Shown here one piece after another: positions 2,806-18,532 of a stretch of 32,000 bases of DNA. The position numbers and the translations under genes are program-made. The notes beneath the pieces are model-generated. The model made no database searches. It worked only from the letters and a program-made list of their open reading frames with translations, and was not told the DNA's origin. The DNA is from Ruminococcus albus 7 = DSM 20455 (GTDB lineage Bacteria; Bacillota; Clostridia; Oscillospirales; Ruminococcaceae). Numbering within the stretch: the stretch's first letter is position 1; the number at the start of each line of letters is the position of its first letter. The DNA is taken from positions 90,001 to 122,000 of the forward strand of contig NC_014824.1 of the NCBI RefSeq assembly GCF_000179635.2, written 5' to 3'.

Positions 2806-3245
2806 GTAAGCGCCAACCAAACCCAGCCCCTAAAGAGAAAAGCCGAGGCTTCCAATGAAACCTCGGCTTTGATCATTAGAGCCATCTACTTGTACTTTAC
2901 TACCGGTTACTATACTTCTCTACCAACGGCTGTAACTCTACTTTACAGCCAATTACTTTACCTCACTGTAAGTTTGCTTACAGTATGATGGAAGTGCCAT
3001 GCTCCAAGGCATTACCGATTTAAGCTGTGTTTCAGTTGGATCCGCCCCCCACTTGGGCAGGACGGTCAGCAGATAGAGCATATACCCATAGACATCAAGC
3101 TCATTTCTTTTTGCTGTTTCGATGATGCTCATAACTGCTGCGCTTGCAGCGGCTCCCTTTTCCGTGTCGCTAAAAAGGAAATTCTTTCGGTTGATGCCAT
3201 CCCCATTATCATCCTTTTCTTCTTTTATCCCTTTGAGTTCATTCT
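2806..3245 (-). mobile_element. IS66-family right-end remnant: terminal GTAAGCG plus the 3' fragment of the transposase gene
   Basis: Minus-strand translation reads ...GINRKNFLFSDTEKGAAASAAVMSIIETAKRNELDVYGYMLYLLTVLPKWGADPTETQLKSVMPW...*, with its stop at 2953-2955. This parallels ...GRKNWLFSNTANGARSSATLYSIISTAQA of the intact IS66 transposase at the window end. The terminus gtaagcgcc at 2806 resembles the IS66 ends at 7976 and 29679. The coding part has no N-terminal region. Confidence 0.7.
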
Positions 3246-3292
3246 CTCATCCACCTCATTATCAACAGACGCATCATTTACCCTTTCCTTAT

Positions 3293-3440
3293 TTCTCATC
3301 ATTCAAAAAAAAACAACTATATATAATTTTCACTTATGAATTTATATATACTTGCAATCTAAAATCATTCGCTTATTATTTTTCCTGAATACTTCATTAT
3401 ATTTCCTAATAGTACATTTTCTTTTCATATACTCTGTTTA
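3293..3440. repeat. Copy B of the ~145-bp AT-rich repeat
   Basis: Aligns with 505-650. Its palindrome is degenerate: caactatatataa 3314-3326 / tttatatatacttg 3341-3354, about 12/14 bp. Confidence 0.7.
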
Positions 3441-3541
3441 TTTGACGGTTATCTTAGTTTCACTTTCCGTCAATAGTATAAACTAATAATATTTTCTAAT
3501 ATAAAAATTGACGAATGGTCAAGAAAAACGGAACGATATTA

Positions 3542-3570
3542 TTGACATTGATGGTCATGTGTGCTAACAT
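3542..3570 (+). promoter_or_regulatory. Sigma-A type promoter of the DUF285 LRR gene
   Basis: TTGACA, 17-nt spacer, TAACAT. Homologous to the promoter block at 27073-27101 (attattgacattgat...atgtg.ta..atatt). Confidence 0.5.
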
Positions 3571-3619
3571 ATTATTGATATATTGCCGTTTCGGCACTAG
3601 AATTCAGGAGGACATAAAT

Positions 3620-5065
3620 ATGAAGTTAAAAAAAGTTTTAGCAGTAGTGATGTCACTTTGTATGGTGGCAGGAACTGTCAGCTACGGCGCACCTGTTATA
3701 ACACAGAGCATAACTGCGCAGGCGGCTGATTCAGCAACAAGCGGCTTTTCATTTAACCAAACAACAGGTATGCTTACGCTTAGCGGTACTGTTGATGGTG
3801 ATGCTTTACGTAAATTTAACAATACCTATCGCGATAACGTTTGGTCTGTCATAGTTTTGGAAGGAACTGTTCTTCCTGAAGACTGCAGCAAGCTTTTTTG
3901 CGAATATCCTTGTTATTCCATCGACCTTTCAAATGCGGATACAAGTAATGTAAAAAATATGAGCAGAATGTTCGATAACTGTTGCAATCTTAAATCGCTC
4001 AATTTAAGTGGATTTGATACAAGCAATGTTACTGATATGAGCTATATGTTCAACGAGTGTGGCAAACTTTATTCTATCGATGTAAGCGGATTTGATACAA
4101 GCAACGTTACAGATATGGGTGATATGTTCTCTCTTTGTGACCAATTAACATCGCTTGATGTAAGCAGATTTAACACAAGCAAAGTTACAGATATGAGTGG
4201 TATGTTCAATTCCTGTCTTAGCTTGTCAACGCTTGATGTTAGCGGTTTTGACACAAGCAATGTTACAGATATGTGTGATATGTTCTGGGGCTGTGCAAAA
4301 TTGACGTCACTTGATATTAGCAAATTTGACACAAGCAAAGTTACAAATATGGGTGGTATGTTCTGTGCCTGTAATAAATTGACTACACTTGATGTAAGCG
4401 GATTTGATACAAGCAAAGTAACCGATATGTCAGGAATGTTCGCTTCAACTAACTTATCAACACTTGATGTAAGCGGATTTGATACAAGCAAAGTAACCGA
4501 TATGATGGCAATGTTCTCTTCAAGAAATTTGACCGAACTTGATCTGAGCTCGTTTGATACAAGCAAAGTTACAAAGATGAACTGGATGTTCTCTTCTAAT
4601 CTACGTTCCCTTACTCTTGGCGAGAATTTCAAAAATGTTCCCGAAGAAGCAGAACTTTATAATGACAAAGGCTGGGTAAATTCCAAAGACATCGCGACTG
4701 TAGTCAGCGGTAACGGAGAGTATGCAGTTATCGAAAACACCGGCAAGAACACCTATAAGCGCTTACCTATCGTTGAAGAAACCAAGCTTACCTACCCTAC
4801 TAACATCAAAGTCGAGTACATAAAAAAATACCACCAGGTAAGATTCACATGGGATAAGGTCGAAAGTGCTGACAAATACAGCATTGCTGTTTTCCTTGCA
4901 GGCAAGTGGAGAGTTCAGAAACAGGATATCACCGGCACTGTTTATACATCTCCCAAAAATCTCACCCCGGGGAAGTCATACAAAGTCGCTATCGCTGCCA
5001 GAGTTGACGGAAAATGGGACACAGCAAATGCTATAAAACATTCGGGTACTGTTACTATAAGGTGA
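3620..5065 (+). CDS. Secreted DUF285/BspA-family LRR surface protein with C-terminal Fn3-like module
   Basis: SD aggagg, then ATG 3620. Signal peptide MKLKKVLAVVMSLCMVAGTVSYG. About 11 tandem 26-aa units of the form LDVSGFDTSNVTDMS.MF..C..LT. Tail KVEYIKKYHQVRFTWDKVESADKYSIAVFLAGKWRV...SGTVTIR. Confidence 0.85.
   Translation: MKLKKVLAVVMSLCMVAGTVSYGAPVITQSITAQAADSATSGFSFNQTTGMLTLSGTVDGDALRKFNNTYRDNVWSVIVLEGTVLPEDCSKLFCEYPCYSIDLSNADTSNVKNMSRMFDNCCNLKSLNLSGFDTSNVTDMSYMFNECGKLYSIDVSGFDTSNVTDMGDMFSLCDQLTSLDVSRFNTSKVTDMSGMFNSCLSLSTLDVSGFDTSNVTDMCDMFWGCAKLTSLDISKFDTSKVTNMGGMFCACNKLTTLDVSGFDTSKVTDMSGMFASTNLSTLDVSGFDTSKVTDMMAMFSSRNLTELDLSSFDTSKVTKMNWMFSSNLRSLTLGENFKNVPEEAELYNDKGWVNSKDIATVVSGNGEYAVIENTGKNTYKRLPIVEETKLTYPTNIKVEYIKKYHQVRFTWDKVESADKYSIAVFLAGKWRVQKQDITGTVYTSPKNLTPGKSYKVAIAARVDGKWDTANAIKHSGTVTIR
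3925..4600 (+). repeat. In-frame 78-bp tandem repeats encoding the 26-aa LRR units
   Basis: Periodic tttgatacaagcaa(t/a)gt.ac.gatatg motif every 78 nt. Confidence 0.8.
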
Positions 5066-5183
5066 CAGTTCAAAATTGATTCGATTTGATAAATGCAAAA
5101 CGGGACTGTTTCAACTAAGCAACAGCTCCTTCAAATTTGTCTCAACAAGAACAAGCTCTTTATTCTTAAAGGAGGAGGATCAT

Positions 5184-7859
5184 ATGAAAATTTTCAAACG
5201 CTTGACCGCTCTGTTTTGTACCGGTGGAATGCTCCTTATGTCAGCACCACACTGTGTTCTCACCTCTCATGCGGCACAAACAGTCAAGCTGTCACCGGAT
5301 AATACTTTTACCATAAACAATGGCGAATTTGAGGGCTGGGGTACATCTCTTTGCTGGTGGGCCAATCGCCTCGGCTATTCTGACTCGCTGGCACAGCAGG
5401 CAGCGGATGTGTTCTACGGTGATGAAGGTCTACGTCTTAATATTGCTCGCTTTAATATCGGCGGCGGTGATGATCCAAGCCACAATCATATCACACGAAC
5501 CGATTCCAATATGCCGGGATATACTAAGTATAGCAACGGAAAAATTACCTATGATTGGAGTGCTGATGCCAATCAGCGCAATGTGCTTATGCGGTCTATT
5601 CAGGCTGCCGGAGATGATATGATTGTGGAAATGTTCTCCAATTCGCCGCCCTATTACATGACGAAGAGCGGCTGTTCGTCAGGATCGGCAGATGCCAAAA
5701 GCAACAATCTGAAGGACGACCAATACGATGATTTTGCGCGGTATTTCGCGGAGGTTTGCTATCACTATCAGCACGACTGGGGCGTGAAGATCCAGAGCGC
5801 GGAAGCTATGAATGAGCCGTATACCAACTTCTGGAAGGCCAACAGCTACAAGCAGGAGGGCTGTCACTTCGATCAGGGAAGCTCGCAGTCAACCATGATC
5901 GTGGAGCTGCAAAAGGCGATGCGTGACAAGGGAATGGGCGATGTTATTCTTTGCGGTACGGATGAGACCTCCATTGACACGCAGATTAGCTCTTTTAACA
6001 AGCTCTCTAATGATGCCAAAAAAGCGATCGGTCGTATCGACACCCACACCTACGGCGGCAGCAAACGTGCCGAGCTAAAAAATATTGCCCTGTCCAACGG
6101 AAAAAATCTCTGGATGAGCGAGGTGGACAGCAGCGGCACGGCCGGGACGAATGCAGGTGAAATGAGTGCGGCACTCTGGCTGGCACAGCGTATCACGACC
6201 GATGTCAACGACATGAACGCATCGGCGTGGATCATGTGGCAGGTGATCGACAGCCACATTTCAAAGAACGGCTACAACGGCCGAAAGGATACCGGTATGG
6301 TGGACACGCAGAAGGGCTACTGGGGCGTGGCAGTTGCCAACCATGATGCAAATAAGATCGTTCTGACGAAGAAATACTACGCTTTCGGACAGTACTCGCG
6401 CTATATTCGCCCCGGTATGATTATGCTGAACTCCTCCGGCAATACTGTTGCCGCTTATGATCCTGAGACGGGACAGATCGTGGCTGTTTCCTACAATACA
6501 AGCGGCAGCAGTGCTGACATAACTTTCGATCTTTCAGACTTTGCTGAGGTTGGCAGCACGGCAAATGCGATCCGCACGAGCAAGAATGAGAACTGGAAGA
6601 ATGTGGGCACTATCAATCTAAACGGCAAAACGCTGAATGCAACCTTGCCCGGCAATTCCATCACAACGTTTGTCATTGAGGGAAATGGCAGTATAGGCGG
6701 CAATGAGATCAAGGTGCAGGCTGACAAGCTAAGCGGCTCTGACTCGTGGAAGCAAAATGCAGATACCGATTTCCACAAGGCTTTTGACGGCGACAACGCA
6801 ACATACTTCGACGGCACGAGAGTCGGCTGGGTACAGGCAGATCTGGGTGCGGTCTACGATCTGAGCGCACTTGCTTACTGCCCTCGTCAGAACTATGAAT
6901 ACCGTATGGTGGATGGCTATTTCGAGGTGTCGATGGACGGCACAGACTGGCAGAGCATACACACAATTAGTGAGAATCCCACATTTGCCATGCACAAAGT
7001 GAAACTTGAAAAGCCGATCACGGCACGTTATATCCGCTATGCAGTACCAGAGGGCAAGCCGCGCAACAGCTACAACACAAATGATGTTTATTGCTGTAAT
7101 GTAGCGGAAATCAAGCTCTATGGCACGCTGAATCCGGAGACGAGCTTTACAAAATTAGCGCCCGAAGCAACAAGCGGTACAGATTCGTGGAAGCAGCAGG
7201 AAGGCTACAATTACGGAAAGGCGTTTGATGGCGATACTGCAACCTACTTTGACGGTGTGGGTGCAGGCTGGGTACAGGCTGGTCTTGGGAAAATATGTGA
7301 GCTGAATGCGATCGCCTACACTCCCCGTAAGGGCTACGAAGCACGAATGGTGGACGGCTATTTCAGCGTTTCCGAGGATGGCACAAGCTGGCAGACGGTA
7401 CACACGATCGGCAGGATGCCCACATCGGACACACAGACCGTTATGCTCGATGCATCGGTGAAAGCAAGGTATATCCGCTACGCTGTTCCGGAGGGAAAGC
7501 CGAATAACGGCGTGAATACCGATGATGTGTACTGCTGCAATATTGCGGAGCTTGCGTTCTATGGCGCTGTACTGCCGAATGCGGTAATCAGCAACACTAT
7601 AAAAGTTGAATACAGCGAGAAATATCACCAGGTAAGATTCACATGGGATAAAGTCGAAGGCGCCGACAGATATGGAATTGCTGTATATCTTGCCGGCAAG
7701 TGGAGAGTTCAGGCGCAGAACATCACCGGTACGGTTTATACATCTCCCAAGAACCTGACACCCGGTAAGAAATACAGAGTCGCAATCGCTGCAAGGGTGA
7801 ACGGCAAATGGGATACCGCAAACGCTATCAAACATTCAGGTACCGTCACCATAAGATAA
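5184..7859 (+). CDS. Secreted glycoside hydrolase family 30 (clan GH-A) enzyme with two F5/8-type-C (CBM32-like) domains and a C-terminal Fn3-like module
   Basis: SD aaggagg, then ATG 5184, followed by a signal peptide. Motifs FEGWGTSLCWWANRLG, EAMNEPY (acid/base Glu) and LWMSEVD (nucleophile Glu). Two ~140-aa repeats: SWKQ...KAFDGD.ATYFDG...GWVQA.LG...ARYIRYAVPEGKP. Tail KVEYSEKYHQVRFTWDKVEGADRYGIAVYLAGKWRV...SGTVTIR. Confidence 0.9.
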   Translation: MKIFKRLTALFCTGGMLLMSAPHCVLTSHAAQTVKLSPDNTFTINNGEFEGWGTSLCWWANRLGYSDSLAQQAADVFYGDEGLRLNIARFNIGGGDDPSHNHITRTDSNMPGYTKYSNGKITYDWSADANQRNVLMRSIQAAGDDMIVEMFSNSPPYYMTKSGCSSGSADAKSNNLKDDQYDDFARYFAEVCYHYQHDWGVKIQSAEAMNEPYTNFWKANSYKQEGCHFDQGSSQSTMIVELQKAMRDKGMGDVILCGTDETSIDTQISSFNKLSNDAKKAIGRIDTHTYGGSKRAELKNIALSNGKNLWMSEVDSSGTAGTNAGEMSAALWLAQRITTDVNDMNASAWIMWQVIDSHISKNGYNGRKDTGMVDTQKGYWGVAVANHDANKIVLTKKYYAFGQYSRYIRPGMIMLNSSGNTVAAYDPETGQIVAVSYNTSGSSADITFDLSDFAEVGSTANAIRTSKNENWKNVGTINLNGKTLNATLPGNSITTFVIEGNGSIGGNEIKVQADKLSGSDSWKQNADTDFHKAFDGDNATYFDGTRVGWVQADLGAVYDLSALAYCPRQNYEYRMVDGYFEVSMDGTDWQSIHTISENPTFAMHKVKLEKPITARYIRYAVPEGKPRNSYNTNDVYCCNVAEIKLYGTLNPETSFTKLAPEATSGTDSWKQQEGYNYGKAFDGDTATYFDGVGAGWVQAGLGKICELNAIAYTPRKGYEARMVDGYFSVSEDGTSWQTVHTIGRMPTSDTQTVMLDASVKARYIRYAVPEGKPNNGVNTDDVYCCNIAELAFYGAVLPNAVISNTIKVEYSEKYHQVRFTWDKVEGADRYGIAVYLAGKWRVQAQNITGTVYTSPKNLTPGKKYRVAIAARVNGKWDTANAIKHSGTVTIR

Positions 7860-9991: not shown

Positions 9992-10066
9992 GCGGGATTG
10001 GCGGAACAGGCATACGCGACGGTCTCAAATACCGTTTTATTCAGGGTTCGACTCCCTGATTCCGCA
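9992..10066 (+). tRNA. tRNA with anticodon CAA (Leu) but a short (~6 nt) variable region
   Basis: Acceptor GCGGGAT/ATTCCGC plus A73. Leu-type D-arm TGGCGGAACAGGCATACGC. Anticodon stem ACGGT/ACCGT with loop CTCAAAT. T-arm CAGGG-TTCGACT-CCCTG. Total 75 nt. Confidence 0.7.
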
Positions 10067-10073
10067 TTTATAT

Positions 10074-10146
10074 GCTCTCGTAGACCAACGGCAGAGTGAA
10101 CGGACTTAAACCCCGTGTAGTGTGAGTTCGAATCTCACCGGGAGCA
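10074..10146 (+). tRNA. tRNA with anticodon UAA (Leu), class-I length, weak D-stem
   Basis: Acceptor GCTCTCG/CGGGAGC plus A73. Anticodon stem ACGGA/CCCGT with an A31-C39 mismatch, loop CTTAAAC. T-arm GTGAG-TTCGAAT-CTCAC. Only 2-3 bp of D-stem could be drawn. Confidence 0.55.
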
Positions 10147-10181
10147 TCAGGATCAATATACTTAGAAAGGAGATGTTTTCA

Positions 10182-10406
10182 ATGCCGGTGATAGACGTCA
10201 AAGCAACAGGAGCGAATATTAAAGCTATAATGAAAATGAAGGGCTTCAAGATCGCTGATGTTCAGGCAAGGTGCGGTTTCAATACTCCGCAGGCTATTTT
10301 CAAGTGGCTGCGTGGAGACGCTGTGCCAACTATAGATAATATGATAATCATAGCCGATATGTTCGGCGTGACTATCGATCAGATAGTTATAATCAAGAAG
10401 ATCTGA
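10182..10406 (+). CDS. Small XRE-family helix-turn-helix protein (74 aa), embedded between tRNA genes
   Basis: SD aaaggag, then ATG 10182. Sequence MPVIDVKATGANIKAIMKMKGFKIADVQARCGFNTPQAIFKWLRGDAVPTIDNMIIIADMFGVTIDQI. Roughly half of its residues match the protein at 11429-11659 by eye. Confidence 0.8.
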   Translation: MPVIDVKATGANIKAIMKMKGFKIADVQARCGFNTPQAIFKWLRGDAVPTIDNMIIIADMFGVTIDQIVIIKKI

Positions 10407-10430
10407 CTGTTATTGCGGTAACAGTCATAA

Positions 10431-10502
10431 GGCTGCATCGTCTAATGGTCAGGACACAAGGTTTTCAACCTTGAAACGTGGGTTCAACTCCCACTGCGGT
10501 CA
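10431..10502 (+). tRNA. tRNA-Glu (UUC)
   Basis: Acceptor GGCTGCA/TGCGGTC. D-arm GTCTAATGGTCAGGAC. Anticodon stem CAAGG/CCTTG with loop TTTTCAA. T-arm GTGGG-TTCAACT-CCCAC. Confidence 0.8.
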
Positions 10503-10567
10503 TTAATTCATCCGTATATGACATCAGCTATATTATAAGTATTCAAAAAAAATATTTCCATCCTTAA

Positions 10568-10596
10568 TTGACTTTTCGGGGATTTTCTTATATAAT
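10568..10596 (+). promoter_or_regulatory. Promoter of the gene at 10648-11094
   Basis: TTGACT, 17-nt spacer, TATAAT. Confidence 0.55.
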
Positions 10597-10647
10597 TAAA
10601 TAAGAATATTGTATTACTTATTTGAGATAATGAAAGGATGTTTTCTT

Positions 10648-11094
10648 ATGTCCATAGATAAAAGAACCGAAATGATCCTAAAAAAAGAGTCATTGACTAT
10701 ATTCAATCAGTTTTGTTCAAAACTGCCATCGGAGTCTTTAGGTCTGTTAATGATGTATCTGCAAAAGTTCAATGACGATAATCCTGATAACGGAACCATT
10801 GTTTTTACTAAAAAAGAATATGAAAAGAAGCTGGGAAATGAAGAAATATCAATCGATGAAATTCAGGACGGCATTCCAGATTTACTAGGTCCGGTAAGAT
10901 TTAAAGGCGATATTCAAATAATGTTTTCTATGTTCATAAGCATTAATATCAGGAAAATAAGCAATGAATATTCAATATTTATGACCTGCAGTGATATTGC
11001 AAAGGATTATATCTTTACCGATCCAAATGTTGCAAAGTATAATTTTATAGACGAGATAAAGAGAAGAATAGACGAGTTAACAAGTATAATGTAG
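10648..11094 (+). CDS. Hypothetical protein (148 aa); only a vague resemblance to winged-helix replication-initiator N-terminal domains
   Basis: SD aaagga, then ATG 10648 (MSIDKRTEMILKKESLTIFNQF...). No motif I can name with confidence. Confidence 0.55.
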   Translation: MSIDKRTEMILKKESLTIFNQFCSKLPSESLGLLMMYLQKFNDDNPDNGTIVFTKKEYEKKLGNEEISIDEIQDGIPDLLGPVRFKGDIQIMFSMFISINIRKISNEYSIFMTCSDIAKDYIFTDPNVAKYNFIDEIKRRIDELTSIM

Positions 11095-11107
11095 CTTACA
11101 AAGCTAC

Positions 11108-11136
11108 TTGACAATTCTCTTTATGAGTGTTATAAT
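11108..11136 (+). promoter_or_regulatory. Promoter of tRNA module 2
   Basis: TTGACA, 17-nt spacer, TGtTATAAT (consensus, extended -10). Confidence 0.7.
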
Positions 11137-11196
11137 CAGTTACAACAAGAGGGGAGCAACGATCTCCCGAAATTATATTACGAAAGGGTGAAAACA

Positions 11197-11334
11197 ATGA
11201 ATTCTATCATGAACAATACTGTTGTCAGATCATATGATGATTACCAGTGCTTCTTTAGCTTTAGTTTTGATTGGCAAGACGAAGGCTTATTTGTGCTGCA
11301 TACGAACACCGGTAATTGTTCAGTTCAAAGATAG
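11197..11334 (+). CDS. Mini-ORF 2 (45 aa), candidate leader peptide: MNSIMNNTVVRSYDDYQCFFSFSFDWQDEGLFVLHTNTGNCSVQR
   Basis: SD aaagggtg. The ORF lies between a consensus promoter and an intrinsic terminator. Codons 13-28 read YDDYQCFFSFSFDWQD. Confidence 0.6.
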   Translation: MNSIMNNTVVRSYDDYQCFFSFSFDWQDEGLFVLHTNTGNCSVQR

Positions 11335-11366
11335 AGTTTATTGACCATCTTCTGAGAGAATATGAC

Positions 11367-11407
11367 CGCCTGTATGTAGTGCAAACTCATACAGGCGATT
11401 TTTTATT
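11367..11407 (+). terminator. Intrinsic terminator / attenuator 2
   Basis: Perfect 10-bp stem cgcctgtatg / catacaggcg with an 11-nt loop, followed by attttttatt. Confidence 0.8.
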
Positions 11408-11428
11408 CTATCGGAAGGTGGTATTATT

Positions 11429-11659
11429 ATGACTGAAGAGATGCCTGTCATAAATATGACAGCGACAGGTTCCAATATAAAGACTCTTATAAAAGCAAAA
11501 GGTTTTAAAGTGACAGAGCTTCAGAACATTCTGGTGTTCAACACACCTCAGTCCATATTCAAATGGATGAGAGGGGAGTCCATACCCTCTATCGACAATC
11601 TGGTGATTCTGGCACATATACTGAATGTCACCATTGATGAGATAATAATCCTTAACTAA
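11429..11659 (+). CDS. Small XRE-family helix-turn-helix protein (76 aa), paralog of 10182-10406
   Basis: SD aaggtgg. Sequence MTEEMPVINMTATGSNIKTLIKAKGFKVTELQNILVFNTPQSIFKWMRGESIPSIDNLVILAHILNVTIDEI. Confidence 0.8.
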   Translation: MTEEMPVINMTATGSNIKTLIKAKGFKVTELQNILVFNTPQSIFKWMRGESIPSIDNLVILAHILNVTIDEIIILN

Positions 11660-11684
11660 TACGTCCTGTTCATTCAGGACACAC

Positions 11685-11758
11685 GGCTCCGTAGTTTAAC
11701 CGGCTAAAACACCGGCCTGTCACGTCGGAGAGCGCGGGTTCAAGTCCCGCCGGAGTCG
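11685..11758 (+). tRNA. tRNA-Asp (GUC)
   Basis: Acceptor GGCTCCG/CGGAGTC plus G73. Anticodon stem CCGGC/GTCGG with loop CTGTCAC. T-arm GCGGG-TTCAAGT-CCCGC. Confidence 0.85.
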
Positions 11759-11764
11759 TCATAA

Positions 11765-11835
11765 TTCCGTTTCGTCTAGTGGTAGGACATCGGTTTCTGA
11801 CACCGAAAACGGGAGTTCAAATCTCTCAGCGGAAA
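11765..11835 (+). tRNA. tRNA-Gln (CUG)
   Basis: Acceptor TTCCGTT/AGCGGAA (U1-A72). Anticodon stem TCGGT/ACCGA with loop TTCTGAC. T-arm GGGAG-TTCAAAT-CTCTC. Confidence 0.8.
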
Positions 11836-11841
11836 TAATTT

Positions 11842-11912
11842 GACTGTGTAGCCAAGTGGAAAGGCTGTCGGCTGCAACCCGACGAGCGTAGGTTCGATCC
11901 CTATCACAGTCT
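11842..11912 (+). tRNA. tRNA-Cys (GCA)
   Basis: Acceptor GACTGTG/CACAGTC plus U73. Anticodon stem GTCGG/CCGAC with loop CTGCAAC. T-arm GTAGG-TTCGATC-CCTAT. Confidence 0.85.
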
Positions 11913-11922
11913 TTAATCACAT

Positions 11923-11995
11923 GCCTCTGTAGCTCAGTTGGTAGAGCGTATGCCTGAAGAGCATAGCGTCGCAAGTTCGATTCTTGCCGGAGGCA
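11923..11995 (+). tRNA. tRNA-Phe (GAA)
   Basis: Acceptor GCCTCTG/CGGAGGC. D-arm TAGCTCAGTTGGTAGAGC. Anticodon stem TATGC/GCATA with loop CTGAAGA. T-arm GCAAG-TTCGATT-CTTGC. Confidence 0.9.
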
Positions 11996-12017
11996 CTTGT
12001 AAAAGTACAAATGTTTT

Positions 12018-12046
12018 TTGAATATCACAAATGTTATCTGTACTAA
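12018..12046 (+). promoter_or_regulatory. Possible internal promoter between tRNA-Phe and tRNA-Gln(UUG)
   Basis: TTGAAT, 17-nt spacer, TACTAA. A weak hairpin ttgta-aaag-tacaa plus a T-run (11997-12019) precedes it. Confidence 0.3.
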
Positions 12047-12048
12047 AT

Positions 12049-12120
12049 TTCCGTTTCGTCTAACAGGCAGGACAACAGACTTTGACTCTGTCAATGGGAG
12101 TTCGATCCTCTCAACGGAAG
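12049..12120 (+). tRNA. tRNA-Gln (UUG)
   Basis: Acceptor TTCCGTT/AACGGAA plus G73. Anticodon stem ACAGA/TCTGT with loop CTTTGAC. T-arm GGGAG-TTCGATC-CTCTC. Confidence 0.85.
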
Positions 12121-12127
12121 CTAATAA

Positions 12128-12204
12128 GTCTCTATTACAAATTATGTATTGAAATTCTATCGGGTATCATCTTTAGAATTCAAGGAGTAGTTTGTAATAG
12201 AGAT
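12128..12204. repeat. 77-nt bipartite hairpin in the spacer between tRNA-Gln(UUG) and tRNA-Trp
   Basis: Outer arms gtctctattacaaa (12128-12141) / tttgtaatagagat (12191-12204). Inner arms aattcta / tagaatt. Confidence 0.6.
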
Positions 12205-12213
12205 GATAGAAAT

Positions 12214-12285
12214 AGGAGAATAGTTCAATGGCTAGAATGACGGTCTCCAAAACCGTAGATCTCAGTTCGACTCTGAGTTCTCCTG
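12214..12285 (+). tRNA. tRNA-Trp (CCA)
   Basis: Acceptor AGGAGAA/TTCTCCT plus G73. Anticodon stem ACGGT/ACCGT with loop CTCCAAA. T-arm CTCAG-TTCGACT-CTGAG. Confidence 0.85.
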
Positions 12286-12302
12286 TCTATACTACAGGTT
12301 TA

Positions 12303-12331
12303 TTGAAATCTGTACTAAGTTATGTTATAAT
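12303..12331 (+). promoter_or_regulatory. Promoter of tRNA module 3
   Basis: TTGAAA, 17-nt spacer, TGtTATAAT (extended -10). Confidence 0.7.
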
Positions 12332-12363
12332 GTCATTAAAGAAATCAAGAAAGGAAGTTCATT

Positions 12364-12456
12364 ATGAAAAACACAGTATTTGCATTCTCATATTCATATA
12401 GTTATTCAAGCGTTGTTCAGAAGAATAAGGCTCGTTTGGCTATGCGTGAATGTTGA
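12364..12456 (+). CDS. Mini-ORF 3 (30 aa), candidate leader peptide: MKNTVFAFSYSYSYSSVVQKNKARLAMREC
   Basis: SD aaaggaag lies 7 nt upstream of the ATG. The ORF lies between a consensus promoter and an intrinsic terminator. Codons 9-16 read SYSYSYSS (tca tat tca tat agt tat tca agc). Confidence 0.6.
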   Translation: MKNTVFAFSYSYSYSSVVQKNKARLAMREC

Positions 12457-12482
12457 TACTGCTTGATGATAAGCTTCAGCAT

Positions 12483-12520
12483 ATACCGTTTGGCTTTCGG
12501 GTCAGGCGGTATTTTTATTT
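12483..12520 (+). terminator. Intrinsic terminator / attenuator 3
   Basis: ataccgtttggc pairs with gtcaggcggtat (12 bp including G-U pairs). Loop tttcgg, followed by ttttatttgtt. Confidence 0.75.
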
Positions 12521-12527
12521 GTTATTC

Positions 12528-12613
12528 GGGAGAGTCACCCAGCGGCGAGGGCAGCGGTCCGTAAAACCGTGACATTAGAAACATCGAAGGTTCGAGTCCT
12601 TCCTCTCCCACCA
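12528..12613 (+). tRNA. tRNA-Tyr (GUA), class II, CCA encoded, C at position 33
   Basis: Acceptor GGGAGAG/CTCTCCC, then A and CCA. Anticodon stem GCGGT/ACCGT with loop CCGTAAA. Long variable arm. T-arm GAAGG-TTCGAGT-CCTTC. Confidence 0.8.
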
Positions 12614-12617
12614 ATAT

Positions 12618-12703
12618 GAGCAGGTACAGAGAATCGGCAAACTCGGCGGTCTGTAAAACCGTTGCTTTATGCGTAGTGGGGTCGGCACCCACCCTGCCCA
12701 CCA
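12618..12703 (+). tRNA. Second tRNA-Tyr (GUA), divergent (A2-C71 mismatch, non-canonical T-loop), CCA encoded
   Basis: Acceptor GAGCAGG/CCTGCCC, then A and CCA. Anticodon loop CTGTAAA. T-arm GTGGG-GTCGGCA-CCCAC lacks the TTCRA signature. Confidence 0.6.
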
Positions 12704-12706
12704 TAT

Positions 12707-12798
12707 GTTGGCATAACCCTAACTGGTAAGGGATCGTCTTGGAAAGGCGAGAGTAATCGGAGTTTTCCGATGTTTCGGTTCGAATCCGAATGCCGACG
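12707..12798 (+). tRNA. tRNA-Ser (GGA)
   Basis: Acceptor GTTGGCA/TGCCGAC plus G73. Anticodon stem TCGTC/GGCGA with loop TTGGAAA. Long variable arm atcgga-gttt-tccgat. T-arm TTCGG-TTCGAAT-CCGAA. Confidence 0.85.
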
Positions 12799-12804
12799 TT
12801 ATGC

Positions 12805-12890
12805 GCTGTGTTAGTGTAATTGGTAACACACTGCTCCCGAAAAGCAGCGTCCTTTTGGACTTACAGGTTCGAGTCCTGTACACAGCGCCA
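12805..12890 (+). tRNA. tRNA-Ser (CGA), CCA encoded
   Basis: Acceptor GCTGTGT/ACACAGC, then G and CCA. Anticodon stem CTGCT/AGCAG with loop CCCGAAA. Variable arm gtcc-tttt-ggac. T-arm ACAGG-TTCGAGT-CCTGT. Confidence 0.8.
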
Positions 12891-12893
12891 TAT

Positions 12894-12988
12894 GGTCACA
12901 TAAGCCTAATTGGTAAGGCAGCGGTTTGCTAAACCGTGAGTAATCGGGTTATTCTGATGTCCGAGTTCAAATCTCGGTGTGGCCGCCA
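12894..12988 (+). tRNA. tRNA-Ser (GCU), CCA encoded
   Basis: Acceptor GGTCACA/TGTGGCC, then G and CCA. Anticodon stem GCGGT/ACCGT with loop TTGCTAA. Long variable arm. T-arm CCGAG-TTCAAAT-CTCGG. Confidence 0.85.
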
Positions 12989-13560: not shown

Positions 13561-13678
13561 ATAAATTTTCTTGTATAATAATATTGTAGATAATAATTAA
13601 TAACTGGAGGTCAGACAGATCAAATAATACTACTAATATAACACTATGGAACATAAAGCCATAAAAGGAGTGAACACT

Positions 13679-14797
13679 ATGGCAAACAAAGCATTTAAAT
13701 TCAGAATATACCCAAATAACGAGCAAAAGGTTTTGTTTGCCAAAACCTTCGGCTGTGTGAGATTGGTATATAACTATTGGTTATACAAAAAGATCAAGCA
13801 GTATAAAGAATATGAGACAACTTTAAATTACAATGCTTGTGCCAAAGAAATGGCTGAACTTAAGAAAATGGAGAAATACTCATTCTTACGGGAAGTGGAC
13901 AGCGTATCATTGCAGCAGTCGCTTCGACACCTGGATACAGCGTTTCAGAACTTCTATAAACAGCCTAAAACAGGATTTCCCAGGTTCAAATCAAAAAAAT
14001 GTAAAAAGAACAGCTATTCTACCGTTTGTATCAATGGTAACATAGCCATATCCAATGGATACTTGAAATTACCTAAAGTCGGACAAGTCAAAGTAAAACA
14101 GCACAGGAACATTCCTAATGAATATGTTCTCAAGTCTGTGACAGTAAGTCAGACTCCAAGCGGAAAATACTATGCAAGTATTCTGTATGAGTACGAAAAC
14201 CAAGTACAGGAACAGGAACTGCATGACTTCTTAGGGCTTGACTTTTCGATGCACGAGCTGTACAAAGACAGCAACGGCAATGAACCGGCTTACCCCGGAT
14301 ACTACAGAAGAGCTGAAAAAAAGCTAAAAAGAGAACAAAAAAAACTTTCTCTTATGCAGAAAGGCTCTAAAAACCGTGATAAACAACGTATCAAGGTTGC
14401 TAAAATGCATGAGAAAGTTGCAAATCAACGAAAGGACTTTCTACATAAACAGTCAAGACAGATAGCCAATGCCTATGATTGTGTATGTATAGAAGATCTA
14501 AACATGCAAGCAATGTCTCAGGCACTTAAATTCGGCAAGTCGGTTTCAGATAACGGCTGGGGAATGTTTGTAACATTCCTGAAGTACAAACTGGAAGAGC
14601 AAGGCAAAAGGCTTGTAAAGATAGATAAATTCTTTGCGAGCAGTCAGACTTGTTCGTGCTGTGGATACATCAATAAGGAAACAAAGAACCTTGCTATAAG
14701 AGCATGGGACTGTCCCGAATGCGGAACTCACCATAACAGAGATGTAAATGCTGCAATAAATATAAGAAATGAAGGTATGCGTATAGCATTAGCGTAG
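13679..14797 (+). CDS. tnpB: TnpB RNA-guided endonuclease (IS200/IS605 OrfB family), apparently intact
   Basis: SD aaaggag, then ATG 13679 (MANKAFKFRIYPNNEQ...). RuvC residues are present: LGLDFS (D), CIEDLN (E), HNRDVNAAINI (D). Zinc finger CSCCG...CPECG. Confidence 0.9.
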   Translation: MANKAFKFRIYPNNEQKVLFAKTFGCVRLVYNYWLYKKIKQYKEYETTLNYNACAKEMAELKKMEKYSFLREVDSVSLQQSLRHLDTAFQNFYKQPKTGFPRFKSKKCKKNSYSTVCINGNIAISNGYLKLPKVGQVKVKQHRNIPNEYVLKSVTVSQTPSGKYYASILYEYENQVQEQELHDFLGLDFSMHELYKDSNGNEPAYPGYYRRAEKKLKREQKKLSLMQKGSKNRDKQRIKVAKMHEKVANQRKDFLHKQSRQIANAYDCVCIEDLNMQAMSQALKFGKSVSDNGWGMFVTFLKYKLEEQGKRLVKIDKFFASSQTCSCCGYINKETKNLAIRAWDCPECGTHHNRDVNAAINIRNEGMRIALA

Positions 14798-15578: not shown

Positions 15579-16123
15579 GGAGTTCCTTTAGTTGTCATTC
15601 ATTCCGAATTTTTTGCTTAATAATCTGGCTTTCCACTTGTTCTCGATTTTGACGATTTAGCCGCCGCACGCTCGTGACTTTAGTCATGAGCGTGCGGCGG
15701 CATTTCTTGACATTCTGTTGAGCATGGTCGAGGGTATGTATATTCATTGTAATACCATATCGTAAGAGCTACCAAATACAGGAAGTCCTGATCATATACT
15801 TCGTCTTGTAAACTGTAAGCCTCAATTAAGAACGTCAGATACTATAATTCTTAAGTGAAAGACAGCTAAGTGAGTAAGATTAGCTGTCTTTCTGCATCTT
15901 AAACCTCATAAAAAGAAAAATTGAATTCTGTTTTTGTCACGCGTGACACAAACACAGAACAACTTTTAAGTATATAAAATTTTAAATTCTTAAAAAAATC
16001 TACTATAATAAATATATATGGAAACCATCGTATTTTGTAGCAACTGTAAGCGACAGAAGTCTTAAACAGGTAACAGATTACATTAATTCTCAAAAAACCA
16101 AGTAGAAGGAGGGAGTCTGCAGT

Positions 16124-17449
16124 ATGCAGATATATACGACTTACAGCGTTAAGATCAAGCATTACAACAACATCTTTAAAGATACCGTTATCGTATACAG
16201 ACATGCTGTAGATTACCTTATCAGCGTTTGTCTGGATCATTGGGATAACATTGTTACATTCAAAGGGGTGAGTAGACTCACATATATTGAAACACTGATC
16301 CATGCTACAAAAGATAATCCCGATCCAATTTATGATTTTGATGCCAAATTCTATAAGATGCCAAGCTATCTGCGCCGTGGTGCAATCAACGAGGCTATAG
16401 GCAAGGTATCATCTTACAAAAGCAATCTCGATAACTGGATCAAAGATCCGGTCGGAAGAGAACCATCGCATCCAAAAGCAGGTTATTCATTCCCGTCTAT
16501 GTATCGTACAGGAATGTACAATCAGACCGGTGATTATACTGCCCAGATCAAAGTCTACATCCGTAATACATGGGACTGGATAACGATAAACCTTAAAAAG
16601 TCTGATATGGATTATATATACAGACATTGCCGCTTACGCAAACAATGCGCTCCAACACTTCAAAAACGAGGCAAGGAGTGGTTTTTGGACTTTCCGTTTG
16701 AGGAAAAGGTCAAACTTGCAGATATATCTGTGTATGAACAGACCATTGTTGCTGTAGATCTTGGTATCAACACTGCCGCTACGGTTTCCGTAATGCGTTC
16801 AGATGGCACTATTCTTGGAAGGCATTTTTGTAAGCTTACCAAAGAAACAGACCATCTGATGCATAGCATTAACCGTATAAAAAAAGCTCAGCAGCATGGT
16901 AACTATAAAACACCAAGGCTTTGGGCAAAAGCCAAAGGCATCAATCACGACATTGCCATAAAAACTGCGAACTGCATCGTAAATATAGCTGTTCTTTATA
17001 ATGCAGATGTTATTGTATTTGAGCATTTAGACAAGAACGGTAAGGTCCGCGGTTCTAAAAAGCAGAAACTCAAGCTGTGGCGCAGTCAGGAAGTTCAGTC
17101 TATTGTAACGAATAAAGCTCACAGACTGGGTATGAGAGTAAGCCATATCTGTGCATGGAATACGTCACGCCTTGCCTACGATGGCAGTGGTTTTGTACTT
17201 CGTGGTAAATTCGGTGGTTTCAATACCTATGAGCTATGCAAATTTCAAAATGGCAAGTCCTACAACTGTAATCTATCTGCTTCGTATAATATTGGGGCAA
17301 GATATTTCATACGTGAAATATTAAAATCCTTGGATGAGAATTCAAGGTTGCTCATTGAGGCAAAAGTACCTCAATGCAGTAAGAGAAGCACCTGCACGTT
17401 CTCTACCTTAGTTAACCTGAATGCGGAAATTATTGCTCAAACAGCATAA
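16124..17449 (+). CDS. TnpB-related protein (441 aa) with an atypical RuvC-III / zinc-finger region
   Basis: SD ggaggga, then ATG 16124. RuvC-I IVAVDLGIN and RuvC-II DVIVFEHLD are present. The position aligning to RDVNAAINI reads CNLSASYNI (Asn instead of Asp). The CxxC...CxxC cysteines are replaced by LAYDGSG ... CKFQNGKSYNC. Confidence 0.75.
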   Translation: MQIYTTYSVKIKHYNNIFKDTVIVYRHAVDYLISVCLDHWDNIVTFKGVSRLTYIETLIHATKDNPDPIYDFDAKFYKMPSYLRRGAINEAIGKVSSYKSNLDNWIKDPVGREPSHPKAGYSFPSMYRTGMYNQTGDYTAQIKVYIRNTWDWITINLKKSDMDYIYRHCRLRKQCAPTLQKRGKEWFLDFPFEEKVKLADISVYEQTIVAVDLGINTAATVSVMRSDGTILGRHFCKLTKETDHLMHSINRIKKAQQHGNYKTPRLWAKAKGINHDIAIKTANCIVNIAVLYNADVIVFEHLDKNGKVRGSKKQKLKLWRSQEVQSIVTNKAHRLGMRVSHICAWNTSRLAYDGSGFVLRGKFGGFNTYELCKFQNGKSYNCNLSASYNIGARYFIREILKSLDENSRLLIEAKVPQCSKRSTCTFSTLVNLNAEIIAQTA

Positions 17450-17556
17450 TTTTCTGAGTTCAGGCTGTATGGTAGAAACGTAGTCCGCCTGCCTAAAGTG
17501 GGCGTGTCCGCTAGACACTATAGGAAGCACGCGACTTTAGTCGTGTGAGGCTTCAC
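17450..17556 (+). ncRNA. Probable omega-RNA-like scaffold 3' part of element 2
   Basis: Structured tail after the tnpB-like stop, ending in the hairpin at 17528-17547 plus aggcttcac. Confidence 0.4.
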
Positions 17557-18300
17557 AACGTCTTCTGTGATGATTGTTTTCGGGAGAATTTGCAGTGTCG
17601 AAAACTGGAAAGCATGGTATCTTTCAGGGTAGTAACAGATAAGTTCTTTCATCTTTTTGTTGTATCCGTGATGTGAATTTACATAGCAGCACCATCTGCC
17701 AAATAAACCATCTTCACCGTAAGCCGAGCCGCCATATTGCTTTCCTGTTTCCGTGTCAACGATAAGATAGATGGCATTTACGGATTTGAGCGCAATGTGC
17801 CATGCTTCGTATATCTCTTTGTTATCCACGATTTCTTTAAGCTGGTCATAGGAAAGCAACGCTTCATCATATCCCATAAATACTTTCTTCTGGTCGGGCA
17901 TTATTGAGATAACAGGCTTTTCTGTCGTTCCTTTTTGATCCCACTTACGAGTAGACGGACCCCAATCAATGGTCAGTTTGCCTTCGTATTCTTTTAGCAG
18001 ATCAACTTTTGTTAGCTCGTATATTGCATTATCGCCTTTATAGCATTCCGCTTCTTTTTCAGGCATTCCTTCGGGAAGCATATCTGGAGTGTCAGAAACA
18101 TAATCACCAACTTTGTATATGGCATAAAGCTGAGCTAAAGTGCCTTTACCACTTATAAATACGACCCAGTATTCATAAACTTTTCCATTGTCAGCACACT
18201 CTTTGAAAACCTTATCAGAAAGTGCGTGTCTTATTAGCTTAACTTTTTTGGGATCCAGTCCTACTTTTTTCAGAATATCAGAAAAATACAGTATTACCAT
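17518..18300 (-). CDS. GIY-YIG nuclease-domain protein (260 aa); the last ~13 codons are read from the IS element 2 end
   Basis: Start MVILYFSDILKK at 18300. C-terminal GIY-YIG-like block AIYLIVDTETGKQYGGSAYGEDGLFGRW. The tail VVKPHTTKVACFL overlaps 17518-17556. Confidence 0.7.
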   Translation of the reverse strand: MVILYFSDILKKVGLDPKKVKLIRHALSDKVFKECADNGKVYEYWVVFISGKGTLAQLYAIYKVGDYVSDTPDMLPEGMPEKEAECYKGDNAIYELTKVDLLKEYEGKLTIDWGPSTRKWDQKGTTEKPVISIMPDQKKVFMGYDEALLSYDQLKEIVDNKEIYEAWHIALKSVNAIYLIVDTETGKQYGGSAYGEDGLFGRWCCYVNSHHGYNKKMKELICYYPERYHAFQFSTLQILPKTIITEDVVKPHTTKVACFL

Positions 18301-18301
18301 A

Positions 18302-18532
18302 TTATTCCAGCCTCTCAAATCTCCTGAATGACTTTCCGTCCTTTTCAACTAACTCATTCCACATCTCAGCGGGGCGCACCCATACACCGTGTTCGCCGTA
18401 AAGCGCACGATAAACGACCATAGGTTCAAGTGTTTCCGAGTGCTGTGCTATTTCAAGAACTTCATATTCGTTACCTTTGTAGTGACGGTATTTGCCTTTT
18501 GGAATAGTGTTTAATGCTTCTTTATAGGTCAT
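18302..18532 (-). CDS. DUF1653-like small protein (76 aa)
   Basis: The pattern KGKYRHYKGNEYEVLEIAQHSETLEPMVVYRALYGEHGVWVRP is typical of DUF1653 (from memory). The gene is tightly packed with both neighbours. Confidence 0.7.
   Translation of the reverse strand: MTYKEALNTIPKGKYRHYKGNEYEVLEIAQHSETLEPMVVYRALYGEHGVWVRPAEMWNELVEKDGKSFRRFERLE

Follow-up and report, generated by a model that had tools for sequence, protein, structure and literature searches.

A probably nuclease-dead TnpB in a decaying IS200/IS605-type element of Ruminococcus albus 7

We analysed a 32,000-nt stretch of the Ruminococcus albus 7 = DSM 20455 genome (contig NC_014824.1, positions 90,001 to 122,000; hereafter referred to as the window) and focused on a tnpB gene at 16124..17449 of the forward strand, whose product has asparagine where RuvC-type nucleases of its kind have a catalytic aspartate. 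The open reading frame (ORF) is intact, with all 441 codons open, and is contained in an IS200/IS605-type insertion sequence (IS) of 1.9 kb that spans 15654-17556. Its product of 441 aa exactly matches ADU23831.1 / WP_013483381.1 of R. albus 7, which is encoded on a replicon of 420,706 bp and is named 'IS200/IS605 family element transposase accessory protein TnpB' in RefSeq.

The curated models recovered this protein below their cut-offs, with 23.7 bits on Pfam OrfB_IS605 (PF01385; cut-off 30.5) and 64.1 bits on NCBIfam NF040570 guided_TnpB (cut-off 100), and the Pfam scan gave no match of the window protein to Cas12f1-like_TNB (zinc ribbon) or HTH_OrfB. Homologues in a large protein collection carry the newer Pfam family PF27142 'Aq_aa04', and it is this family, not HTH_OrfB_IS605, that covers the N-terminal part of the protein. 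The tnpB family to which the window protein belongs is divergent from the curated TnpB models. An AlphaFold2 model of the 441-aa protein, built with 63 homologues, was confident (pLDDT 87, pTM 0.71), and the top 50 Foldseek matches in the PDB were all Cas12f, TnpB, Fanzor2 or other Cas12 proteins, with E-values down to 1.7e-15. The TM-scores of the full-chain Cas12f/TnpB matches ranged from 0.48 to 0.63, with lower values for partner chains and for 8exa. Since the best of these matches were Cas12f/TnpB complexes (AsCas12f, OsCas12f, ISDra2 TnpB 8h1j and the ISFba1 TnpB complexes), the window protein has the TnpB fold. A family profile searched against the Cas12f/TnpB chains of the PDB aligned all three RuvC motifs (E 2e-16). 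By its fold, split RuvC domain, IS context and guide-RNA scaffold, the protein belongs to the TnpB superfamily, which agrees with the first-pass annotation, made from the letters of the window alone, that had called it TnpB-related.

Among known systems, Cas12f (type V-F; PDB 8J12, 8DZJ, 9NZQ) provided the best structural and profile matches; unlike Cas12f, the window gene has no CRISPR array, is located inside an IS with tnpA, and encodes no zinc finger. The protein also resembles the TnpB of ISDra2 (IS200/IS605; PDB 8H1J, 8EXA) in overall fold (Foldseek TMq/TMt 0.50/0.59 to 8h1j) and in having RuvC-I, RuvC-II and RuvC-III in the same order, but differs from it in being longer (441 aa), in its PF27142 N-terminal part, in falling below the guided_TnpB cut-off, in having a DGSG segment in place of the C4 zinc finger throughout its family and, in the window copy, in having asparagine for the RuvC-III aspartate.

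The ends of the element were set by blastn against copies in other genomes and metagenomes, to which homology starts at 15648/15649 and stops at 17556-17558, with unrelated sequence outside. On the left, this start was seen against loci L001-L003, L008, L009 and L016, and on the right, the boundary at 17556-17558 recurred in at least 25 loci, in every one of which the sequence beyond it is unrelated. TTGAC (15649..15653, +), the putative target or transposon-adjacent motif (TAM), lies directly 5' of the left end (LE; 15654..15713, +), and at least 12 independent insertions have TTGAT or TTGAC immediately before left ends whose sequences otherwise diverge. We take this TTGAY motif to be the same pentanucleotide as TTGAT, the target and TAM of ISDra2, and by analogy with that element TTGAY would act as the TAM here. 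The left end forms an imperfect hairpin, an inverted repeat with 20-nt arms (15660-15679 and 15682-15701) that are 95% complementary, and its core CGTGACTTTAGTCATG is also present in the right end (RE). The latter (GGAAGCACGCGACTTTAGTCGTGTGAGGCTTCAC; 17523..17556, +) is a sharp element boundary of 34 nt that is 100% identical even where the elements are only 75% identical overall. The subterminal hairpins at 15660-15701 and 17528-17547 have the common core CGYGACTTTAGTCRYG, which occurs at just these two sites in the window (chance expectation, 0.06 matches); the IS605-like hairpins that had been proposed to flank the gene are thus confirmed, and ISDra2 likewise has subterminal hairpins at both ends.

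Between the left end and tnpB lies a decayed tnpA pseudogene (Y1/HUH transposase; 15714..16102, +), which was identified by tblastn with the intact 142-aa TnpA of L013. The remnant is split into three fragments, each in a different frame, and is interrupted by in-frame stops; it lacks residues 37-67, and its HUH motif reads HILRL in place of HIHLL. Strong Y1/HUH tnpA matches are found at the same position in L012, L013, L015, L016, L019, L024, L027-L030 and L036, and an intact 142-aa tnpA ORF was confirmed in L013 and L016. A Y1 tnpA partner within the element is therefore another feature in common with ISDra2, intact in relatives of the window copy and a pseudogene here. The tnpA matches of L001-L006 and L008 are similarly fragmented, which points to a tnpA-less sub-lineage that is present in at least three different contexts.

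Within the split RuvC domain, the codon for the RuvC-I aspartate (D212, VAVDLGIN; 16757..16759, +) aligns to the GVDLG motif of Cas12f/TnpB, and that for the RuvC-II glutamate (E300, VFEHLD; 17021..17023, +) aligns to their catalytic glutamate. Both residues are kept in all 121 close sequences, and in 76 (D212) and 78 (E300) of the 79 distant ones. At the RuvC-III position the codon is AAT, encoding N383 (17270..17272, +), where relatives have GAT; the C-terminal RuvC-III motif reads NCNLSASYNIGARYF, and the C-terminal stretch near the end of the protein reads ...CKFQNGKSYNCNLSASYNIGARYF. Three independent alignments placed N383 on the catalytic aspartate of the xxDxNAAxNI motif. With phmmer, 'gnkmnaDrNAsfNIa' of the PDB TnpB 9nzp_A pairs with 'gksyncNlSAsyNIg'; in the alignment of a 67-sequence family profile with Cas12f/TnpB chains, 'YncDLnAsyNI' pairs with 'naDfNAsqNI', 'naDyNAarNI' and 'naDrNAsfNI'; and with hhalign, 'HNRDVNAAINI' of the neighbouring canonical TnpB pairs with 'YNCNLSASYNI'. 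The substitution of asparagine for the RuvC-III aspartate, first suggested from the sequence of the window alone, accordingly stands, also in the profile alignment to TnpB/Cas12f.

Relatives of the protein have aspartate at this position (NCDLSASYNI), including 120 of the 120 closest (80-97% identical), all 11 full-length sequences read from the 90% cluster of the query, and 75 of the 79 full-length distant representatives, a set that extends down to 31% identity and includes the query. The nearest DNA copies (L001-L006, ~95% identical) read GAT versus AAT in the window, and a scan of metagenome contigs for the codon context, with the variable base set to R, gave six matches, all with G (Asp). 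D383N is one G>A transition, at 17270, and was found in the window copy alone; the exact Asn protein occurs on one contig only. The complete D-E-D triad is present in the family, with D212, E300 and D383 conserved at about 95-100%, and not in the window copy (D212, E300, N383). Three substitutions in the window protein are found in none of the 120 close relatives; two (L171 and S379) fall in variable columns, and D383N is the sole unshared substitution in an invariant column. These three substitutions and the dN/dS of 0.18-0.25 between the window tnpB and its nearest copies indicate that the ORF shares a history of purifying selection with its Asp-bearing relatives and has not decayed further. 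The low dN/dS reflects this shared history and not selection on the Asn allele.

The asparagine codon could in principle be a sequencing or consensus error, or a mutation of the laboratory stock, in which case the natural allele would be GAT and the protein an ordinary active TnpB. This would account for the change of one base at a site that is invariant elsewhere and for an Asn allele that is seen on one contig and in none of the six metagenome matches; we consider it quite unlikely, given that the two other unshared substitutions and the decayed tnpA fit real divergence, and that the R. albus 7 source is presumably a finished genome, and finished genomes seldom contain single-base substitution errors. 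In proteins of the RuvC/RNase H fold, such an Asp-to-Asn change should eliminate metal-dependent cleavage or lower it severely while RNA and DNA binding stay intact, and in Escherichia coli RuvC, Asp-to-Asn changes at the corresponding carboxylates abolish cleavage, not binding. By analogy, the window copy is probably nuclease-dead, because a near-invariant catalytic aspartate has been replaced by asparagine, and the N383 protein may still bind RNA and DNA.

We further examined the segment between RuvC-II and RuvC-III, in which the window protein has no CxxC pair. The zinc-finger CxxC pairs align with '...TSRLAYDGSG...' and '...CKFQNGK...' of the window protein. The first-pass annotation had described the zinc-finger cysteines as lost, which is correct for this protein, and the loss is a property of the whole family: a CxxC between RuvC-II and RuvC-III was found in 1/79 family sequences and was absent in 78/79 representatives. 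In place of the C4 zinc finger is a segment that is cysteine-free family-wide (residues 347-382, TS..A.DGSG...R...F..GK.Y; 17162..17269, +) and aligns to TSQxCxxCG...CxxCG of solved Cas12f/TnpB structures. Within it, D353, G354 and F374 are invariant in the family (D353 in 79/79), and T347, S348, A351, S355, G356, R360, G377, K378 and Y380 are at least 90% conserved. A non-canonical zinc site made of H341, C343, C372 and C382 was rejected, as none of the four residues is conserved across the family.

The family comprises more than 6,900 clusters at 90% identity with E <= 1e-3 among the candidates examined, and 1,472 clusters at 50% identity. Judged by its sequences, this is a very large clade of predicted TnpB RNA-guided nucleases, mostly from gut and rumen Firmicutes, with a normal D-E-D triad. 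We regard the loss of the zinc finger as unrelated to the inactivation of the window copy, because thousands of evidently mobile members with the full triad lack the zinc finger as well. Several large TnpB branches have lost their zinc fingers, which are dispensable in some branches (PMC10691335), so the absence here is not new. One such large branch without the C4 zinc finger is RIIIr-4, a clade defined by a conserved Asp-to-His change in RuvC-III (Altae-Tran et al. 2023, PMC10691335); the window family, unlike RIIIr-4, keeps the aspartate, and membership in that clade was excluded, since the RuvC-III histidine is required and the family consensus is NCDLSASYNI. In the literature, we found no report of any tested member of the zinc-finger-less clade; one speculative possibility is that this clade, with its invariant DGSG motif, has unusual cleavage properties.

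A guide-RNA scaffold resembling an omega-RNA is predicted at 17349..17556 (+), where it overlaps the 3' end of tnpB and the right end and includes the terminal hairpin 17528-17547, the same arrangement as in ISDra2, whose structured RNA overlaps the tnpB 3' end and ends at the right end. RNAalifold on 24 loci gave 58 pairs, compensatory double changes occur in 29 of these, and the scaffold contains a long-range pairing of GAAGC (17385-17389) with GCTTC (17550-17554). In an explicit pair count, 94.6% of the cells were paired versus 32-45% when the partners were slid, the covariation score was 0.273 versus 0.03-0.06 for the slid versions, and 0/500 shuffles matched the observed pairing on any measure. 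We infer that the scaffold region is transcribed as RNA. Rfam at the gathering threshold returned only 12 tRNAs in the window and no guide-RNA family. A further short hairpin at ~17499-17517, upstream of the terminal right-end hairpin, has aligned positions in L009-L026 and by eye its base changes compensate each other from locus to locus (GCAGCCGCAAGGCTGC, GGTGCCGCAAGGCACC, GGTGTCGTAAGACACC); gaps in the alignment hid it from RNAalifold and also prevented a clean count. Directly 3' of the conserved scaffold end is the flank that would be read through as a putative guide (AACGTCTTCTGTGATGATTG; 17557..17576, +). By analogy with ISDra2 TnpB this flank would function as the guide, and a search of the window at <=3 mismatches gave no second match to it.

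Related copies of the element are widespread in unrelated genomic surroundings. A scan of GTDB genomes returned 30 loci, with R. albus 7 not among them, and at least 25 related copies were found in unrelated flanks in Lachnospiraceae, Oribacterium, Roseburia, Eubacterium, Erysipelotrichaceae and other R. albus strains. Many homologue matches come from contigs whose length (1.5-2.3 kb) is close to that of the element, a pattern that multi-copy repeats produce by breaking assemblies. In R. albus GCA_000526775.1 (JAGS01000005.1; L038), two tandem copies of the element lie 2.2 kb apart (3001-4326 and 5164-6489); both have aspartate at 383, and their proteins are 97.5% identical to each other. Homology of this locus to the window starts only at 15935, so its left-end region is lacking or diverged. 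A megablast search of PLSDB with the whole element gave no match. When the flanking ORFs of the 25 loci were compared all-against-all, no protein was present in more than two loci, and hence there is no conserved neighbour.

These data bear on whether the window tnpB encodes a protein without nuclease activity that the host has domesticated and keeps for gene regulation as an RNA-guided, DNA-binding repressor, similar to the TldR proteins described by Wiegand et al. (PMC10705468). Like TldRs, the protein is derived from TnpB, has a replaced RuvC residue and is encoded beside a guide-RNA scaffold, which is intact; its ORF is otherwise undamaged and under overall purifying selection, and TldRs with a single mutated residue exist (PMC10705468). 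The initial TldR screen of that study was limited to proteins with at least two mutated residues. TldR mutations are, however, conserved within clades, whereas the asparagine is confined to the window copy and absent from the 120 close relatives, the 11 full-length cluster members and the 6 metagenome matches, and the low dN/dS is a history shared with Asp-bearing copies. TldR loci have no identifiable transposon ends and have lost the association with tnpA (PMC10705468), whereas the window copy retains LE, RE, the target motif and a tnpA remnant. TldR genes are linked to fliC, oppF or csrA and their guides match a host promoter or 5' UTR; the window tnpB has no gene association that is conserved across the 25 loci, and its putative guide is the insertion flank, without a second target in the window. 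We therefore consider exaptation of this copy to be extremely improbable.

ISDra2 and IS608 are the established models for the mechanism of this family. Following them, a Y1 TnpA would excise and move the element as single-stranded DNA and insert it 3' of TTGAY, and TnpB would bind a scaffold RNA of ~200 nt derived from its own 3' end and the right end. This RNA would read through into ~16-20 nt of the flank, which would serve as the guide, and TnpB would then cut TTGAY-flanked empty sites, from which the element would be restored by recombination. In the window copy, these steps would meet a dead tnpA, left as a frameshifted remnant, and a full-length tnpB in which the third catalytic carboxylate is now an amide, with only the local flank (17557-17576) as its presumed guide.

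With the fold, the motifs, an asparagine unique to this copy, the element ends, the mobility of the family and the covariation of the RNA all observed directly, we interpret the window element as a recently inactivated, non-autonomous and decaying copy of an active transposon family, with a loss-of-function allele of tnpB and not an exapted regulator (probability roughly 85%). Several points weigh against this interpretation. The loss of cleavage through D383N would follow by analogy with other RuvC-fold enzymes, and the label of an active family is drawn from conservation and signatures of mobility. Besides, a second Asn-383 branch exists in metagenomes, consisting of P0139 (11 members) and P0400, which are 87% identical to each other; the next and more distant relatives of this branch have aspartate at 383, and the independent asparagine indicates that a D>N change can persist for some time in the family. 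Finally, the invariant D353 sits near the former zinc-finger position. Neither the P0139/P0400 branch nor the D353-G-S-G motif changes the verdict on the window copy.

An alternative is an Asn allele that is still active or partly active, either through compensation by another acidic residue, with D353 as the candidate, or through Asn-mediated metal binding, which would give the lineage an unusual but working active site. In its favour, D353 is invariant in a segment that adjoins RuvC-III, the independent Asn branch has persisted through 13% divergence, and rearranged TnpB catalytic sites have been documented (PMC10691335). On the other hand, D383 itself is ~95-100% conserved alongside D353, which argues that D353 is no substitute for it, and mutation of any residue of the D-E-D triad abolishes the nuclease activity of TnpB (Wiegand et al., PMC10705468); residual activity of the window allele thus seems highly unlikely. 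A relocated catalytic aspartate was likewise excluded, as the family has its aspartate at the canonical RuvC-III position.

Loss of function in a single copy of a mobile element thus remains our preferred interpretation, and the first-pass annotation of this gene is partly supported. Of its candidate nuclease-dead, RNA-guided DNA binder, the probable loss of nuclease activity holds for this one copy, and the exapted, TldR-like part does not, given the unique asparagine, the retained ends and the lack of a conserved neighbour. A domesticated protein is at odds with a G>A change in one copy, with the presence of ends, target motif and scaffold, and with flanks that have no gene in common across 25 loci; a distinct active lineage with a relocated aspartate is at odds with the canonical aspartate of the family. 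The remaining suggestion, that of an inactive copy, agrees with the evidence.

The neighbourhood of the element in the window contains surface-protein genes, a tRNA array and a second, canonical TnpB, and no recurrent link of these genes to the tnpB at 16124..17449 was found. The array comprises 12 tRNA genes at 9992-12985 (+), just upstream of both TnpB elements. The second TnpB (13646-14797, +; 383 aa) is unrelated and fully canonical and is located 1.3 kb upstream (2.5 kb between the gene starts) in the same orientation; its score on NF038281 IS200_TnpB is 432 bits, its domains are HTH, OrfB_IS605 and zinc ribbon, and it contains the RDVNAAINI motif. On the other side, a minus-strand ORF at 17518..18348 encodes a hypothetical protein of 276 aa with no Pfam hit and ends within the right end of the IS. 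Removal of the element in silico lengthens this ORF by 22 codons; the insertion thus hit the 3' end of a gene and replaced its native C-terminus.

For biology, the window copy itself carries little weight, as it is an unremarkable, mildly damaged example of a mobile element of a known kind. One 'dead' catalytic residue in one sequence is not evidence of exaptation, a point also made by Wiegand et al. (PMC10705468) through the limit on their initial screen. A highly speculative and doubtful extension is that D383N and the P0139/P0400 branch represent natural 'dead' complexes of TnpB and guide RNA that are tolerated or favoured in mobile elements, as an early stage toward domestication of the TldR type; if true, such complexes may bind TTGAY-flanked empty donor or sister-copy sites without cutting and so moderate the toxicity of the element. 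The clade as a whole is notable for its abundance in the gut and rumen, its TTGAY motif, its sharp right end and its covarying RNA scaffold of ~200 nt. The N383 allele and its Asp-bearing relatives (~96-97% identical) would provide a natural pair of a predicted dead and a predicted active protein for characterising this clade.

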